Assembly (NCBI RefSeq): GCF_026898155.1
Contig: NZ_CP114029.1
Span: 5,349,072-5,373,071, forward strand
DNA length: 24,000 nt
Source: Jiella pelagia
GTDB lineage: Bacteria; Pseudomonadota; Alphaproteobacteria; Rhizobiales; Rhizobiaceae
Direction: 5' to 3'
Numbering within the stretch: the stretch's first letter is position 1; every line of letters begins with the position of its first letter. Below the pieces are notes generated by a model. It did not search any database, had not been told where the DNA came from, and was given only the letters and a program-made list of their open reading frames with translations. Shown piece by piece: positions 5,491 to 11,387 of this stretch. Made by a program: the position numbers and the translations under genes.

Positions 5491-6072
5491 TCAGATCTGC
5501 TCAAGCGTCCAGCTGACGATTTCGCCGGAAATCTGGTCGAACGCCCTGTTGAGCGCCGCGACATAGACGTCGCTGCCGGTACCGCTGACCGGAGAGGAGG
5601 CTGAGAATATCTGCGTCTGCCGGACGGTGCCGTTGCGGTCGTTGAGCGTCTTCACCGAAATGTCGATCCGCGCCGTCGCAGCGCCCGACGTGTCGATCTC
5701 GAAGCGGCGGATCTCAGTGATCAGTTGATAATCGATTGCCAGCCCCTGACCCGGCACGCCGACGGCGCCGATCTGGCCGGTGTTCTCGAAGGCCTGCAGC
5801 AGCCGCAGCTGCACCATGCGCGGCAGCCGATCGCTCCATTGGCTCTGGGCAAGATACTGAATGGCATAGGGAGAGGTCTTGACGACGATCTTTTCGCTAT
5901 CGAGCGTCTTGATCGCGGTCGGTTCGGGGATGAGCAACTGTGCGCGGCTGCTGCTCTGCACCGAAACGTTGGTCGGCGAGGCGATCTCGAACGTGTCCGG
6001 CGGCACAGAGCTGCAGCCGGCGAGGAGACCCGCCACGAGTGCGGCAATCATTGGTAGCTTCACGCCGGTCAT
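5491..6072 (-). CDS. ABC-type transport auxiliary lipoprotein (DUF330 / PqiC-like)
   Basis: 193 aa from the ATG at 6072. The lipoprotein signal MTGVKLPMIAALVAGLLAGC has the lipobox LAGC, and a purine-rich GAGGGGA lies upstream. Size, and position directly after the MCE gene, fit the auxiliary lipoprotein family. The ORF-track extension to 6315 is Arg/Gly-rich and looks non-coding. Confidence 0.75.
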   Translation of the reverse strand: MTGVKLPMIAALVAGLLAGCSSVPPDTFEIASPTNVSVQSSSRAQLLIPEPTAIKTLDSEKIVVKTSPYAIQYLAQSQWSDRLPRMVQLRLLQAFENTGQIGAVGVPGQGLAIDYQLITEIRRFEIDTSGAATARIDISVKTLNDRNGTVRQTQIFSASSPVSGTGSDVYVAALNRAFDQISGEIVSWTLEQI

Positions 6073-6331
6073 CGTCGCGGTCGTCCCCTCTTCCAGCGGC
6101 GCGCGGACAGCATCGCCCGTCATGCGCCTGGAAGCCCGCCGGTTCGGCAGGCTGCCCCGTTGCTTGCACCCGCAACCGAGCCTGTCAATTGCACCGAAGG
6201 CCGCGCCCCTGCGCGCGCCCACACAAACTTCCGCGGCGGGACGAGATTGCCACAAGACAGCCGTCCAACCCGGCGTTTGTCGCGGCCTCTTGGCCGCGTT
6301 CGAGCCCGGAGCCAAGGCGGCGTGACGGCGA

Positions 6332-9145
6332 CTAACGCCGCGTCCGCCCGTCGTACTGCTTCACGTCGTCGCCGCCATAAAGAATGCGGCTTGGGTTGGT
6401 GGAGAAGTCGGCGACCGCGTCGTCGATCCGGTCGACCGTCCGGGAGAGGCTGCGCATCAGCGACTGGAAGTCCTGCAGACCCTGGCTGGAGAAGCGCTGC
6501 AGGTTGGCCGAGATCGGCGTCACCTGCTCCTGGATCGACTGCGCCGCCCCGCGGACCGACTGCAGGGCGCCCGCGAGGTCGGAACCCAGCTGGGTGCCAT
6601 TGCCGGCTCCTGCGAAGACGCCGTCGATCGACGTCAACACGCCGTCGATCTTCGCCGATGCGGTTTTCAGGCTGTCGCTGGTCGCCTGGACGTTTTCGAT
6701 GATGCTGTCGATCTGCGGCCGCTTGGCGCCGATGTCGGTGGCGACGCCGGCGATCGAGTCTGCTGCCCGGGCGACGTTGTCCGTCGCCGCCGAGACGTTC
6801 TCCACCGCCTGGTTCACCTTGCCGGGGTCGATGCTGGCGAGCAGCGTGTCGAGCTGCGCGCGCGTCTCGGAAAAGCCCTTGACCGCGCCGTCAATGGTCA
6901 GGACGGCGGAATTGACCCGTTCGACGATCGACTGGATTTCCGGGGTCTTCTCGCGCACGGCGTCGGTGATCGCGCCGACATTGTCGATCGACTTGTTGAT
7001 CATCGCCGTATCGAGAGAATCGACCACGCCCTTGGCGCTGTCGAGAGTCGAGTTCAGCTTGGTCGAGGCCTGGCTGACATTGGTGCTGATCGGGCCGAGG
7101 CTGGCGAGCAGCTGGTCGATGGCGTCGACGCGCTGGGCAACCGTCGTGGTGATCTGGTTGACGTTCTGCGCCGAGTTGGCGAAGCCGCTGATCGCCGAAG
7201 AGATCGCCTCCTTCTGCTGGTTCACCGTCTCGCTCACCGACGCGACGTTGGCCGCGGCGGAGGAGAAGGAGTCCACCGCCGTCGCGACCTTTTCCGGGTC
7301 CACCGCCGCCACCACGCGGTCGGCGTTCTGCAGCGTCGTGTCGAGGCTGTTGGCGACGCGGTTGGCCGTCTCCGTCAGCGGCGCGATGTTGGCGATCGCC
7401 TGGTCGATGTCCTGGCGGCGATCCGCCACCGTCTTCGTCACCTGCTCGACATTGGTCACGGCGTTCGACGCGCCCTGCACAATGGTATCGATCGCTTCGG
7501 ACTGGTCGCTCAGCTTCTGGCTGAGTGCTGCGGCATTGGTCGCCGTCGTCGACGCCCCGTCGAGGGTCGTCTGCACCTTCGCCGGATCGATCGCCGCAAC
7601 GACCTGGCGGGCCGAGCCGAGGGTCTCGTTCAGCGACGTCGCAGCCTGGCCGACCTGGTCCGAGATCGGACCGAGATTGGCCAGCGCCTGGTCGATCTCG
7701 CCGGAGCGCTGCGCCACGGTGGTGGTCAGCCGGTTGACGTTCTGCGCCGAGTTGGCAAAGCCGCTGATCGCCGACGAAATCGCTTCCTTCTGCTGGTCCA
7801 CCGCCTCGGTCAACGAGGCGACGTTCGTCGCTGCAGCCGTAACCTGGTCGAGCGTCTGCGACACCTTGGCCGGATCCACCGCCGCGACCACACGGTCGGC
7901 ATTCTGCAGCGTCACGTCGAGGCGGTTGGCCACCCGGTTCGCGGTGTCGGAAAGCGGCGCGAGATTGGCGAGCGTCTGGTCGATTTCCTCGCGCCGGTCG
8001 GCAACGGCCTTGGTGACGGTTTCAACGTTGGCGACGGCGTTGGACGCGCCCTGAACGATGGTGTCGATCGCTTCGGACTGGTCGTTGAGCCTCTGGCTGA
8101 GGGCCGCGACATTCGTCGCCGTTTGCGACACGCCGTCGAGCGTCGTGGAGACCTTCGCGGGATCGACGGCGGCGATCACCTGATCAGCGCCTTGTAGCGT
8201 CGTGCCGAGTTGGGTGGCGACGCTCGTCGCGGTGTCGGCGAATGGGCCGAGGGCCCCGATGAAGCGGTCGATCCCGTCGGCATTCTGATTGATCACGTCA
8301 CCGATCTTGCCGACGCCGTTCGCCGCCGACTGAACCGAATCCATGACGCTGCCGATCCGCTCCGAGCCTTCTCGGACATTCGCAGTCACCTGCGTGACGT
8401 TGCCGACGATCTGGCCGATTTCGTCGGTGTCGACTGCGGCAAGGATGTCCTGCGCTTGCTGGATCGCGCTCGGCAAGGCGTCTGCGACGTTGCGTGCGCT
8501 GACGGTCAGCGCCGACAGGCTGTCGACGAAGGAATCGATGTTGTCGGTGTTGCGGGCCAGCGCGGCGGTGAAGGTCTCGACGTTCTCCGACGTCTTGGCG
8601 ACGTTGGCGACGGTGGTCTGAACGCCGGGGCCGGCATCCTTCACAATGCTCTCGAATTCGCCGAGGATCGTGTTCGCCCGGTCGGCGATGTCGCGGGCCG
8701 TCGCCAGGATGTCGGTGACGTCCGAGGGATTGGCGCGGATGACGGGAGTGACACCCTGCTGCCGGGCCTCGTCGATGAGATTTTCACCTGTGGGATCGCC
8801 GCCCTTCAGTTCGACGAAGGCATAGCCCGTCAGGCCCTGGAAGCCGATATTGGCCTGGGTGTTCTCCTTGATGGGGATTGTGGGATCCACCATCGTCGTG
8901 GCGATGACCACGCCGGGATTGTTGTTGTCGATCCTCAGCGCAGTCACCTGGCCGACCGGCAGGCCGTTGAACAGCACCTGGCTGCCCTGCTGCAGGCCGG
9001 TCACCGATCCTTCGATTCGCACGAGAAGCGGCACGCGGTTGTCACCGCTCGACGAGAACACGCTCCAATAGGTGAAGCCGACCGCAAGGGCGAGGACGAC
9101 GAGCGTGAAGATGCCGACGCGGACGTAATTGGCTCTGGTTTCCAT
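6332..9145 (-). CDS. MCE/MlaD-family protein, 937 aa, with a very long repeat-built helical C-terminal extension
   Basis: N-terminal TM helix (VRVGIFTLVVLALAVGFTYWSVF). One MCE domain (VRIEGSVTGLQQGSQVLFNGLPVGQVTAL...GFQGLTGYAFVELKGG). About 780 aa of Ala/Val/Thr/Gln/Asn/Asp-rich sequence follow, then the conserved tail FSTNPSRILYGG. The start ATG overlaps the stop of the upstream ATPase gene (TGATG at 9143-9147). Confidence 0.9.
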   Translation of the reverse strand: METRANYVRVGIFTLVVLALAVGFTYWSVFSSSGDNRVPLLVRIEGSVTGLQQGSQVLFNGLPVGQVTALRIDNNNPGVVIATTMVDPTIPIKENTQANIGFQGLTGYAFVELKGGDPTGENLIDEARQQGVTPVIRANPSDVTDILATARDIADRANTILGEFESIVKDAGPGVQTTVANVAKTSENVETFTAALARNTDNIDSFVDSLSALTVSARNVADALPSAIQQAQDILAAVDTDEIGQIVGNVTQVTANVREGSERIGSVMDSVQSAANGVGKIGDVINQNADGIDRFIGALGPFADTATSVATQLGTTLQGADQVIAAVDPAKVSTTLDGVSQTATNVAALSQRLNDQSEAIDTIVQGASNAVANVETVTKAVADRREEIDQTLANLAPLSDTANRVANRLDVTLQNADRVVAAVDPAKVSQTLDQVTAAATNVASLTEAVDQQKEAISSAISGFANSAQNVNRLTTTVAQRSGEIDQALANLGPISDQVGQAATSLNETLGSARQVVAAIDPAKVQTTLDGASTTATNAAALSQKLSDQSEAIDTIVQGASNAVTNVEQVTKTVADRRQDIDQAIANIAPLTETANRVANSLDTTLQNADRVVAAVDPEKVATAVDSFSSAAANVASVSETVNQQKEAISSAISGFANSAQNVNQITTTVAQRVDAIDQLLASLGPISTNVSQASTKLNSTLDSAKGVVDSLDTAMINKSIDNVGAITDAVREKTPEIQSIVERVNSAVLTIDGAVKGFSETRAQLDTLLASIDPGKVNQAVENVSAATDNVARAADSIAGVATDIGAKRPQIDSIIENVQATSDSLKTASAKIDGVLTSIDGVFAGAGNGTQLGSDLAGALQSVRGAAQSIQEQVTPISANLQRFSSQGLQDFQSLMRSLSRTVDRIDDAVADFSTNPSRILYGGDDVKQYDGRTRR
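6836..8269. repeat. In-frame tandem repeat inside the MCE gene: a 288-bp (96-aa) unit organised as two 576-bp super-repeats (7694-8269 and 7118-7693), plus one further degenerate unit
   Basis: The landmark IDxxLAxLxP recurs at aa 293/389/485/581/677, and AAVDPxKV recurs at aa 325/421/517/613; each pair is exactly 96 aa apart. DQSEAIDTIVQGASNAV occurs at aa 355 and 547, and QQKEAISSAISGFANSAQNVN at aa 451 and 643, both 192 aa apart. The 65-nt stretch 8037-8101 differs from 7461-7525 at 7 positions. Confidence 0.85.
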
Positions 9146-10050
9146 CAGGCGGCTCCATCGGAGGGCATCGGCTGCGCTGCGGTTCCATGGTCGGTGACGA
9201 CCGTGCGGGCGCGCTTGCCGTGGAAATAGGATCTCACCCAGGGGTGATCGGATTGCAGCATGGTCGACAACGGGCCCTCGATCAGCACCTTGCGGTCGCC
9301 GAGAACGGCGATGCGGTCGCAGGCCTGGAAGAGGCTGTCGAGGTCGTGCGTCACCATGTAGACGCTGAGGCCCAGCGTATCGCGCAGCGTCATGATCAGC
9401 TGGTCGAAATCGGCGGCGCCGATCGGGTCGAGACCGGACGTCGGCTCATCGAGGAAGACGATCTCCGGATCGAGGGCGAGCGCCCTGGCGAGGGCGGCGC
9501 GCTTGATCATGCCGCCGGAGAGTTCGGACGGGTACTTGTCCGCCGCGTCCGGGGCAAGGCCGACGAGATCGATCTTGAGTCGGGTCAATTCGCGCATCAG
9601 CTTCGGCGACAGATCGAGATATTCGCGCATCGGCACCTCGATGTTCTCGGCGACCGTCAGCGCCGAGAACAGCGCGCCCTGCTGGAACAGAACGCCCCAG
9701 CGGCGCTCGACCGACAGCTTCTCTCGCTCGCTCGCCTGGTGGTAGTCGATGCCGAAGACCTCGATCTTGCCGCCCTGCTTGGGATTGAGGCCGAGAATGG
9801 TGCGAAGCAGCACCGACTTTCCCGCGCCGGACGGACCGACGAAACCGAGGATCTCGCCGCGACGCACGTCGAGCGAGAGGTTTTCGAGGATCTTCTTGGC
9901 TCCAAAGGCGACGTTCACGCCGCGCGCACGGATCAGCACCTCGCCCTGTGCCTGCGCTTGGGCGGCGTTCGCCGCAGAGCCTCCGTTGAGAGCCGTTCCG
10001 TTCTGGGCCGCAGGGTCGTGTGCCACTGTCTCAGAGCCCCATCGAGGCAT
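9145..10050 (-). CDS. MlaF-like ABC transporter ATP-binding protein
   Basis: Walker A GPSGAGKSV, Q-loop GVLFQQGALF, signature LSGGMIKRAALARAL, Walker B IVFLDEPTSGLDP and H-loop MVTHDLDS are all present. The start is uncertain: ATG 10050 overlaps the permease 3' end, TTG 10062 and GTG 10026 are alternatives. The N-terminal roughly 40 aa are low complexity (AAQNGTALNGGSAANAAQAQAQ). Confidence 0.88.
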   Translation of the reverse strand: MPRWGSETVAHDPAAQNGTALNGGSAANAAQAQAQGEVLIRARGVNVAFGAKKILENLSLDVRRGEILGFVGPSGAGKSVLLRTILGLNPKQGGKIEVFGIDYHQASEREKLSVERRWGVLFQQGALFSALTVAENIEVPMREYLDLSPKLMRELTRLKIDLVGLAPDAADKYPSELSGGMIKRAALARALALDPEIVFLDEPTSGLDPIGAADFDQLIMTLRDTLGLSVYMVTHDLDSLFQACDRIAVLGDRKVLIEGPLSTMLQSDHPWVRSYFHGKRARTVVTDHGTAAQPMPSDGAA

Positions 10051-11219
10051 AGAAGATCGCAAACAGGCCGTCCATGACGATGACGAGGAAGATCGATTTT
10101 ACCACGGACGCGGTGACGCGAAGGCCGAGGCTTTCGGCGCTGCCGCCGACCTTCATCCCCTCCAGCGCCCCGACGACGCCGATGACGATTGCCATGAAGG
10201 GCGCCTTGATCACGCCGGAGAAGACCGTGAACAGGTCGACGCTGGTTTGAATACCCTGCAGGAAGTTGGCGAAAGAGATGTCGGAATAGAGCTTCAGCGT
10301 CAGCATGCCGCCGAGCAGCGCCGCAAGATTGGCAAGAACCGTCAGGAGCGGCAGCGCGATGGTCAGCGCCAGGAGGCGCGGAAACACCAGGACGCTGATC
10401 GGGTTGAGGCCGATGACATGTAGCGCGTCGATTTCCTCGCGCATCTTCATCGAGCCGATCTCGGCGGTGATGGCGCTTCCCGAACGGCCGGCGATCATGA
10501 TCGCGGCAAGAAGCACGCCGATCTCGCGCAGCACCAGGATGCCGACGAGATTGACGGCATAGACCTCGCCCCCGAAGCGCCGCAGCTGGAAGGCCCCCTG
10601 CTGGGCGATGATGCCGCCGATCAGGAAGGTGATCAGGACGATGATGGGGATCGCCTTCACGCCCATCTGGTCGAGCTGGTTGAAGACCGCGGCCGGGCGC
10701 CCTCGGGTGCGACCGGTCAGGCGATTGCCGGCGCCGTAGATCGCCCCGCCGAGGACGTTGAGGGCGGCCACCAATTCGTCTCGGACGGCGTAGACGCCGC
10801 TGCCGACCGCGTTGGGAAAGGCAATCAGCGGGTTCGGACGCGTCTTCTCGGCTGCGGGAACATCCTTGTCCATCGCCCCGCGAACAGCCTCAAACAGCGC
10901 CTCGTCGCGCTTTGACACGCCGGCGAGCCTCGACCTTGCGGCGCCCATTGTCGAGATCGCGCGACAGACGTTCGAGGACGAAGGCCCCGGCGGTGTCGAT
11001 TCGGCCAACATTCGAGCAATCCACGGTGATCCGCTCGCCGAGATCGGAACGGGCGGTTTCCGACAGAAGGCTCTCGATGTCGCCGACGGTGCGCGCCAGC
11101 CAGTCGCCGCTGGCGACAAGCCGAACCCCGCCATCCCGCTTCTCGCCTTCGAGAACAGGTTTGACGGCAGACAGGCGACCGCGCTCGGCGGCCTCGTCGG
11201 GCTTCACAGCCTCCAGCAT
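10031..11219 (-). pseudogene. MlaE-family permease with an N-terminal MlaB-like STAS domain, interrupted by a +1 frame break near 10925-10931 (real pseudogene or assembly indel)
   Basis: The ORF at 10890-11312 encodes a STAS-like segment (GGVRLVASGDWLARTVGDIESLL...ITVDCSNVGRIDTAGAFVLERLSRDL). The ORF at 10031-11134 in the next frame encodes LAGVSKRDEALFEAV... followed by the MlaE core (REIGVLLAAIMIAGRSGSAITAEIGSMKMREEIDAL). Skipping one nt in GTCGAGGCTCGCC (minus strand) joins them. The start is uncertain: ATG 11219 is preferred, ATG 11282 and TTG 11312 are alternatives. Confidence 0.8.
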
Positions 11220-11387
11220 CGTCCCTCGATCCGCATCCGGCCCGCTTCTGGCTGCCGCCAAGTCCTGCCGACCATGGGTCATCCCGACGGTCGGCGGCGA
11301 TCGGTCGGCCAATCGGTTGCCACCCCCTTCACTGGCACAGGGCTTCGTGGGAATAAACCAAAGCCGTTTCCAGGGAGATCATTTACC

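Follow-up and report, generated by a model that had tools for sequence, protein, structure and literature searches.

Needle-type transporters of the MCE family are thought to bridge both membranes of the bacterial envelope, with a tube whose length is matched to the periplasm. In a 24,000-nucleotide (nt) stretch of the genome of Jiella pelagia (contig NZ_CP114029.1, positions 5,349,072 to 5,373,071; hereafter the window, whose own numbering is used throughout), a gene on the minus strand encodes a protein of 937 amino acids (aa) in which a single MCE domain is followed by a very long helical tail made of 96-residue units. Each unit consists of 13 heptads (91 residues) plus a five-residue V-D-P-x-K joint, a composition that explains the unit length, and among Jiella species the number of units changes in exact steps of 96 residues. 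Our favoured explanation, to which as a whole we give a probability of roughly 0.7, is that this protein is the modular, MpcD-type needle subunit of a Jiella Mpc envelope lipid transporter. Transporters of this kind are already known (Mpc, PA3211-14), and what is new here is the unit of 13 heptads and a V-D-P joint together with its exact-step copy variation; the literature searched describes neither the 96-aa unit nor its heptad structure nor its stepwise variation between close species.

When the protein is compared with itself, the best offsets are 192 aa (29% identity) and 96 aa (24%), and the DNA yields the offsets of 576 and 288 nt, both of which are recovered by an independent repeat search. 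This periodicity lies far beyond chance expectation and confirms a preliminary description of the same DNA, which had reported an exact period of 96 aa (288 bp) with a super-period of 192 aa (576 bp). Tandem Repeats Finder reports no array in 6332-9145: its periods end at 500, and the divergence among the copies is too great for it. The sequence landmarks listed in the preliminary description are all present, one of them displaced by a single residue: the ID..LA.L.P motif, located by regular expression, starts at aa 292 and not 293, and recurs at aa 388, 484, 580 and 676. The AAVDP.KV motif occurs at aa 325, 421, 517 and 613, the word typical of A units at aa 355 and 547, that of B units at aa 451 and 643, and VVDSLDT at aa 707. 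The core comprises four units, classed by the type of their N-terminal (x, y or z) and C-terminal (A or B) halves, and the degenerate units that had been proposed to flank it on both sides are indeed found there:

8267-8554, minus strand: unit U0, degenerate and in register (aa 198-293), with an AAVD-type joint at aa 239 and 12-20% identity with the core units.
7979-8266, minus strand: core unit A1 (aa 294-389), N-half x, C-half A.
7691-7978, minus strand: core unit B1 (aa 390-485), N-half y, C-half B.
7403-7690, minus strand: core unit A2 (aa 486-581), N-half z, C-half A.
7115-7402, minus strand: core unit B2 (aa 582-677), N-half y, C-half B.
6827-7114, minus strand: unit U5, degenerate (aa 678-773), its N-half 52% identical to that of A2.

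The difference between odd and even units holds for the J. pelagia genome, where like units share 68-73% of their residues (A1/A2, 68% aa and 66% nt; B1/B2, 73% aa and 79% nt) and A units share 44-50% with B units. The two 576-bp modules (7694-8269 and 7118-7693) differ at 159 of 576 positions, 86 of which are third codon positions. The high local similarity noticed earlier, a 65-nt stretch for which seven mismatches were claimed, is real and even closer in the best 65-nt window (four mismatches), but it does not extend to the modules, which are 72.4% identical overall and share no exact run longer than 25 nt. Their closest stretch, 7156-7221 against 7732-7797 (61 of 65 nt, with the 25-nt run inside), codes for the B-type word EAISSAISGF...NV. 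This patch could be the trace of a small gene conversion or of codon-level constraint, and a rough estimate gives it marginal significance.

The value of 96 finds its explanation in the hydrophobicity spectrum of aa 140-920, which is dominated by a single peak at 3.556 residues per turn, that is, 96/27. This peak reaches a power of 651, whereas none of 300 shuffles exceeds 92, and the sub-regions of the protein sum almost coherently. In a sliding phase analysis, the phase drifts steadily inside each unit, as it does for the canonical heptad with its local period of 3.5, and then jumps abruptly once, with a drop in amplitude, always at A-A-V-D-P. When the consensus of 30 units is written in seven-residue rows starting at the Asp of D-P, column 5 is V, I, L or A in all 14 rows, and the same layout reveals a second hydrophobic column with small residues alongside. 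After the MCE domain, the protein therefore carries the continuous amphipathic heptad pattern of a coiled-coil needle. As 96 residues amount to 27 turns of the hydrophobic stripe, the gain or loss of whole units keeps the register along ~780 residues. The presence of two prolines per unit had raised the idea of a spectrin-like three-helix repeat, with two breaks per ~100-106 residues, which was rejected: the second proline motif, L-x-P, leaves the heptad phase undisturbed and only V-D-P breaks it. The helix breaks predicted by AlphaFold2 fall at the joints only, one per unit, and in the model of a three-unit fragment the first helix begins at the residue that matches joint 1. The four joints of the core are:

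8150-8173, minus strand: joint 1 (AAVDPxKV, aa 325-332), where the phase jumps and the amplitude collapses at aa 329, with an AlphaFold2 break at 326-329 in a low-confidence stretch.
7862-7885, minus strand: joint 2 (aa 421-428), from regular expression and phase, with an AlphaFold2 break at 421-425; repeat family D10.
7574-7597, minus strand: joint 3 (aa 517-524), from regular expression and phase, with an AlphaFold2 break at 517-521; repeat family D10.
7286-7309, minus strand: joint 4 (aa 613-620), from regular expression and phase, with an AlphaFold2 break at 612-617.

The same arithmetic appears in other lineages, with periods of 89, 103, 82, 75, 68 and 61 residues, all of the form 7n+5, and with 93 and 112 as exceptions.

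The comparison of ten Jiella genomes, with one orthologue each, gives the following architectures:

745 aa, three Jiella genomes: xA-yB.
841 aa, four Jiella genomes: xA-yB-zB.
841 aa, one Jiella genome: xB-zA-yB.
937 aa, J. pelagia (the genome analysed): xA-yB-zA-yB.
1033 aa, one Jiella genome: A-B-B-B-B.

The core unit number thus ranges from 2 to 5, with orthologue lengths that step by exactly 96 residues and with no other net length change in the protein. The preliminary description had called for a comparison of repeat number among orthologues and had imagined a modular ruler of variable length. The counts do differ between species in 96-aa steps, and that part of the proposal stands; the two-unit A/B module, on the other hand, is not the conserved principle, since the steps between species are single 96-aa units and not 192-aa modules, and the alternation is peculiar to the J. 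pelagia genome, its relatives showing A-B-B, B-A-B or A-B-B-B-B orders. The N-half and C-half types are freely combined among Jiella units, which places the crossovers at conserved junctions. Both sister species of J. pelagia carry three units (A-B-B), so one 96-aa unit has been gained or lost inside a small clade. The high divergence between A1 and A2 speaks for the loss of a unit by the sisters, or else for recombination in which the partner was a diverged allele.

Beyond the genus, 44 of the 54 closest homologues have lengths within 5 residues of 457+96k, with classes near 555, 648, 745, 841 and 937, a fit that is descriptive only, as these homologues are mutually related and non-independent. 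Relatives of the Rhizobium and Agrobacterium type have 456-457 aa, and homologues of 321-564 aa from other genera of the same GTDB family match aa 1-207/290 together with the C-terminal 140-175 residues. The family as a whole extends from 321 to 1620 aa, or from zero extra blocks to about 12. Its longest members, the Acuticoccus homologues of 1330 and 1620 aa, keep the same 96-aa period, and the 1620-aa protein of Acuticoccus mangrovi contains, at aa 478-957, five consecutive 96-aa units that are 80-98% identical at the protein level. Judged by these identities, the five-unit run would be a truly recent amplification, to which the concerns about recombination and assembly apply; the draft assemblies of the relatives are short-read based, and the near-identical Acuticoccus units could be miscounted.

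The part of the protein that precedes and follows the repeats agrees with a needle subunit. An N-terminal membrane helix precedes an MCE beta-barrel, which is the arrangement of the MCE/MlaD superfamily, and the ~800 residues after this domain are predicted to be helical. AlphaFold2 assigns a predicted local distance difference test (pLDDT) score above 90 across aa 40-140. The protein matches TIGR00996 with 159.6 bits (cutoff 140.5) and also PF11887 (Mce4_CUP1), and its best Foldseek matches are Mce1 and MlaD (TMt up to 0.78 for MlaD). Homology with MlaD, PqiB, Mce1 and PA3213 suggests that the MCE domain forms a hexameric ring. At the other end, P918, G924, G925, G933, R934, R936 and R937 are invariant or nearly so in 63 homologues, and this tail is a candidate for the peptide that docks on the PqiC-like lipoprotein of the neighbouring gene, by analogy with the C-terminal peptide of PA3213 and its partner PA3214. 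The gene and the non-repeated features of its product are:

6332-9145, minus strand: MCE gene (mpcD-like), encoding a single MCE domain and a very long helical tail, 937 aa, from the open reading frame (ORF) and its translation.
9053-9136, minus strand: N-terminal transmembrane helix (aa 4-31), an AlphaFold2 helix of high pLDDT and hydrophobic sequence.
8798-9010, minus strand: MCE/MlaD beta-barrel domain (aa 46-116), PF02470 with E 9.5e-13, strands at 38-114 with pLDDT above 90.
6335-6394, minus strand: conserved C-terminal tail (aa 918-937), from conservation in the 63 homologues.

Among sequences of the PDB, the top match is 13hr (E 1e-27, aa 1-261), an entry titled "Mce/MlaD domain-containing protein" that, by its matching length of 312 aa, appears to be PA3213. 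PDB constructs of the coronavirus spike S2 HR1 region also match aa 212-359, with E down to 7e-12, and this homology was rejected as a matter of Asn/Gln/Ser/Ala-rich heptad composition. The Pfam labels PF28544, PF26039 and PF28019 are also listed for the homologues.

The MCE gene is the third of a co-directional operon on the minus strand, whose four genes (MlaE-type permease, MlaF-type ATPase, single-MCE needle protein and PqiC-like lipoprotein) lie within 5491-11134 and overlap or abut one another, in the layout of the Mpc type, that is, of a Mla-Pqi chimeric system. Its neighbours are:

10890-11312, minus strand: STAS-domain ORF, PF13466 and PF01740 at aa 65-128.
10031-11134, minus strand: MlaE-family permease (mpcE-like), PF02405 with E 9.7e-69 and TIGR00056 with 217.7 bits (cutoff 212.2).
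9145-10062, minus strand: MlaF-like ABC (ATP-binding cassette) ATPase (mpcF-like), PF00005, top NCBIfam match MlaF with E 2.2e-51, under the equivalog cutoff.
5491-6315, minus strand: PqiC-like outer-membrane lipoprotein (mpcA-like), PF03886 (ABC_trans_aux) with E 1e-29.

The end of the ATPase gene overlaps the start of the MCE gene. The STAS ORF and the permease core overlap in different frames, and a STAS-MlaE fusion is therefore split as assembled, either by a frame break in the assembly or genuinely. As the PF03886 domain is wholly contained in a shorter ORF (5491-6072, E 4e-30), the lipoprotein ORF that starts at 6315 (824 nt) is probably over-extended, with its real start downstream of this position and a gap of ~260 nt after the MCE gene. 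On the plus strand, an open frame of 556 codons (6384-8054) runs antisense to the repeat region; such frames are typical of G+C-rich DNA, and this one has no support as a gene.

These elements can be assembled into one model. The membrane anchor and the single MCE domain would form a hexameric ring on an MlaFE-type ABC transporter, from which a long helical needle would extend until its conserved C-terminal tail docks on the ring of the PqiC-like lipoprotein, the product of the neighbouring gene, at the outer membrane. The units would most likely be stacked in line, as the segments of a hexameric tube whose hydrophobic lining runs without interruption and whose length may grow by ~11-14 nm per unit, and the number of units would change through in-register unequal recombination at the conserved junctions. 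As the least certain step, the tube would have to be bent, tilted or superhelical to fit within the periplasm.

The closest known relative in layout is the Mla-Pqi chimeric system (MpcEFDA) of Brucella abortus, where MpcD has 331 aa and is modelled as a channel of ~25 nm that matches the periplasm (PMC12436622). Both systems belong to the order Hyphomicrobiales and bring together an MlaE permease and a STAS domain (fused in MpcE, but in different frames in the J. pelagia assembly), an ATPase resembling MlaF, a protein in which one MCE domain is extended by helices, and a lipoprotein of the PqiC kind; they are likened by operon layout, and the two needle proteins differ widely in size, with 331 aa in Brucella and 937 aa here. 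The Brucella study noted "repeat coiled-coil" helices and a large variation of channel length among Hyphomicrobiales, and remarked that this length "varies greatly", perhaps from differing periplasm widths or angles (PMC12436622), without a defined unit, its heptad make-up or species variation in exact steps. In the PA3211-PA3214 system of Pseudomonas aeruginosa, PA3213 (312 aa) forms a rod of ~17 nm that likewise matches the periplasm, and the octameric PqiC-like lipoprotein PA3214 binds its C-terminal peptide (PMC13631591). The operon layout is common to both, and PA3213 is also a single MCE domain followed by a helical needle, but it lacks the 96-aa modules and its C-terminal peptide has a different sequence. 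The mycobacterial Mce1 heterohexamer (8FED/8FEF), the top structural match, also extends its MCE ring into a long helical needle that encloses a hydrophobic tunnel, and it shares the TIGR00996 and PF11887 matches; unlike the Jiella protein, it is made of six different subunits, with a portal domain, no PqiC-like partner and a needle of fixed length without a repeated module. Escherichia coli PqiB and LetB are periplasm-spanning MCE proteins as well. PqiB has a C-terminal six-helix coiled-coil needle that threads PqiC, and LetB reaches its length through module repetition, but in both the repeated element is the MCE domain (three in PqiB, seven in LetB), whereas in the Jiella protein it is the helical part, and their partners are PqiA or LetA and not an ABC transporter. 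As for the evolutionary mechanism, and for nothing else, an analogy is offered by the stalks of trimeric autotransporter adhesins, fibrous coiled coils in which recombination adds or removes entire repeats from one strain to the next; such proteins sit on the cell surface and have neither tunnel nor transporter.

A different history of the repeats was advanced in the preliminary description, according to which a 576-bp two-unit module was recently duplicated in tandem and remains both prone to recombine and liable to mis-assembly. The A/B/A/B order, the spacing of 576 bp and the local 65-nt resemblance would fit such an event, and in the approximately unbiased (AU) test the grouping of the two B units of J. 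pelagia as sisters is not rejected (p 0.09), while its two A units cluster with weak support (34/79). The substitution rates already contradict it. The number of synonymous substitutions per site (dS) is ~0.89 between the modules (1.0-1.5 for A1/A2 and 0.55 for B1/B2), against 0.38-0.44 to the sister species J. avicenniae and J. pacifica and 0.5-0.8 to the remaining genus, both measured on 553 non-repeat codons. On the trees, the copies of this genome lie at least as far from each other (path lengths 0.28-0.34) as from the orthologous units of other species, and the A-B-B order of the sisters, like the other architectures, represents single-unit variants. Trees of half-units separate the A and B C-halves at 100/97 and the z from the x/y N-halves at 100/99; within these clades they are star-like, with sequences too short to date the duplications, and the argument on timing uses dS and path lengths only. 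On this basis, the copies appear to be old, dating back about as far as the main Jiella radiation, and to be under purifying selection, and we regard the recent duplication of a two-unit module as very improbable. Having at most 25 identical bases in a row, the copies are also poor substrates for recombination today and not prone to collapse in assembly, contrary to both warnings of the preliminary description. That the unit count itself is an artefact of repeat collapse or expansion seems the least credible possibility of all. The marker completeness of 85% in three contigs (one of ~5.6 Mb) points to an error-prone long-read assembly, and, together with the base-level frame breaks elsewhere in the window, suggests systematic single-base errors and not missing DNA; against a wrong count, copies that are 66-79% identical in nucleotides make every unit unique to an assembler, the frame stays open over 937 codons (2.8 kb), each unit has its own nearest orthologue in other genomes, and repeats of this size are spanned by long-read contigs.

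The geometry of the needle is where the model is most exposed. At 1.15-1.5 Å per residue, the helical part placed end to end measures ~90-115 nm, and a straight needle of this length, or of more than 200 nm in Acuticoccus, clashes with the ~17-30 nm reported for periplasm widths and needles (PA3213, MpcD). Further points weigh against our favoured explanation: AlphaFold2 models the three-unit fragment, at low confidence, as an antiparallel three-helix bundle; exact multiples of 96 follow from unequal crossing-over alone and are no proof of a length function; the orthology with Brucella MpcD rests on operon layout and not on direct alignment; and the frame break of the STAS-MlaE gene, if real, may impair the transporter. 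An alternative arrangement would have the 91-residue helices reverse at each V-D-P joint and pack antiparallel, so that additional units thicken or decorate a needle of constant length (~13 nm per layer). This would remove the clash with a periplasm of ~30 nm and agrees with the AlphaFold2 monomer of three units, in which long helices, connected at the joints by loops of 10-16 residues, form a three-helix bundle that resembles elongated three-helix bundles of the PDB (5jdo, TMq 0.54; 4tql) and has the trypanosome haptoglobin-haemoglobin receptor as its best match by template modelling (TM) score; moreover, the AlphaFold3 models of the Brucella authors show helices folding over themselves (PMC12436622). 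Collapse into bundles is nevertheless what monomer predictions of isolated amphipathic helices are expected to show, and AlphaFold2 models the helical part with a confidence too low to settle the geometry (pLDDT 57.6 for the full protein and 57.2 for the fragment, whose predicted TM score is 0.39). A unit count that differs by one between close species would also move the C-terminus from one end of the bundle to the other, while the conserved tail at that terminus and the lipoprotein gene are retained throughout, and the hydrophobic stripe is the same in all units, with no sign of inner and outer classes. We consider this folded arrangement rather doubtful and weakly prefer the end-to-end segmented tube. 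Its full consequence, jointed, bent or superhelical hoses of ~85-130 nm in Jiella and more than 200 nm in Acuticoccus, is itself a tentative proposal, only a little less doubtful. The extra units could, lastly, be tolerated filler that drifts neutrally in number, with no role as a ruler and with heptad register as the one feature that matters for assembly. The wide range of lengths in the family and a unit order that is not conserved would suit this idea, as would the exact multiples; but the ratio of nonsynonymous to synonymous rates (dN/dS) between like units is 0.18-0.30, which indicates that the unit sequence is functionally kept, the unit motifs are strongly conserved across species, no partial or decayed units occur in the core of the ten species, and old copies have persisted for about as long as the genus has been radiating. 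Neutral drift is in our opinion an unlikely account.

With a defined block and close orthologues that lie one, two or three blocks apart, this locus turns the published remark that the Mpc channel length "varies greatly" into a measurable quantity and provides a natural series for testing the span of the needle. If the end-to-end arrangement were true, the lipid tunnels of MCE proteins need not be straight bridges perpendicular to the membranes, their length would be set in steps of 13 heptads, and such hoses could join sites of the inner and outer membranes that do not face each other.

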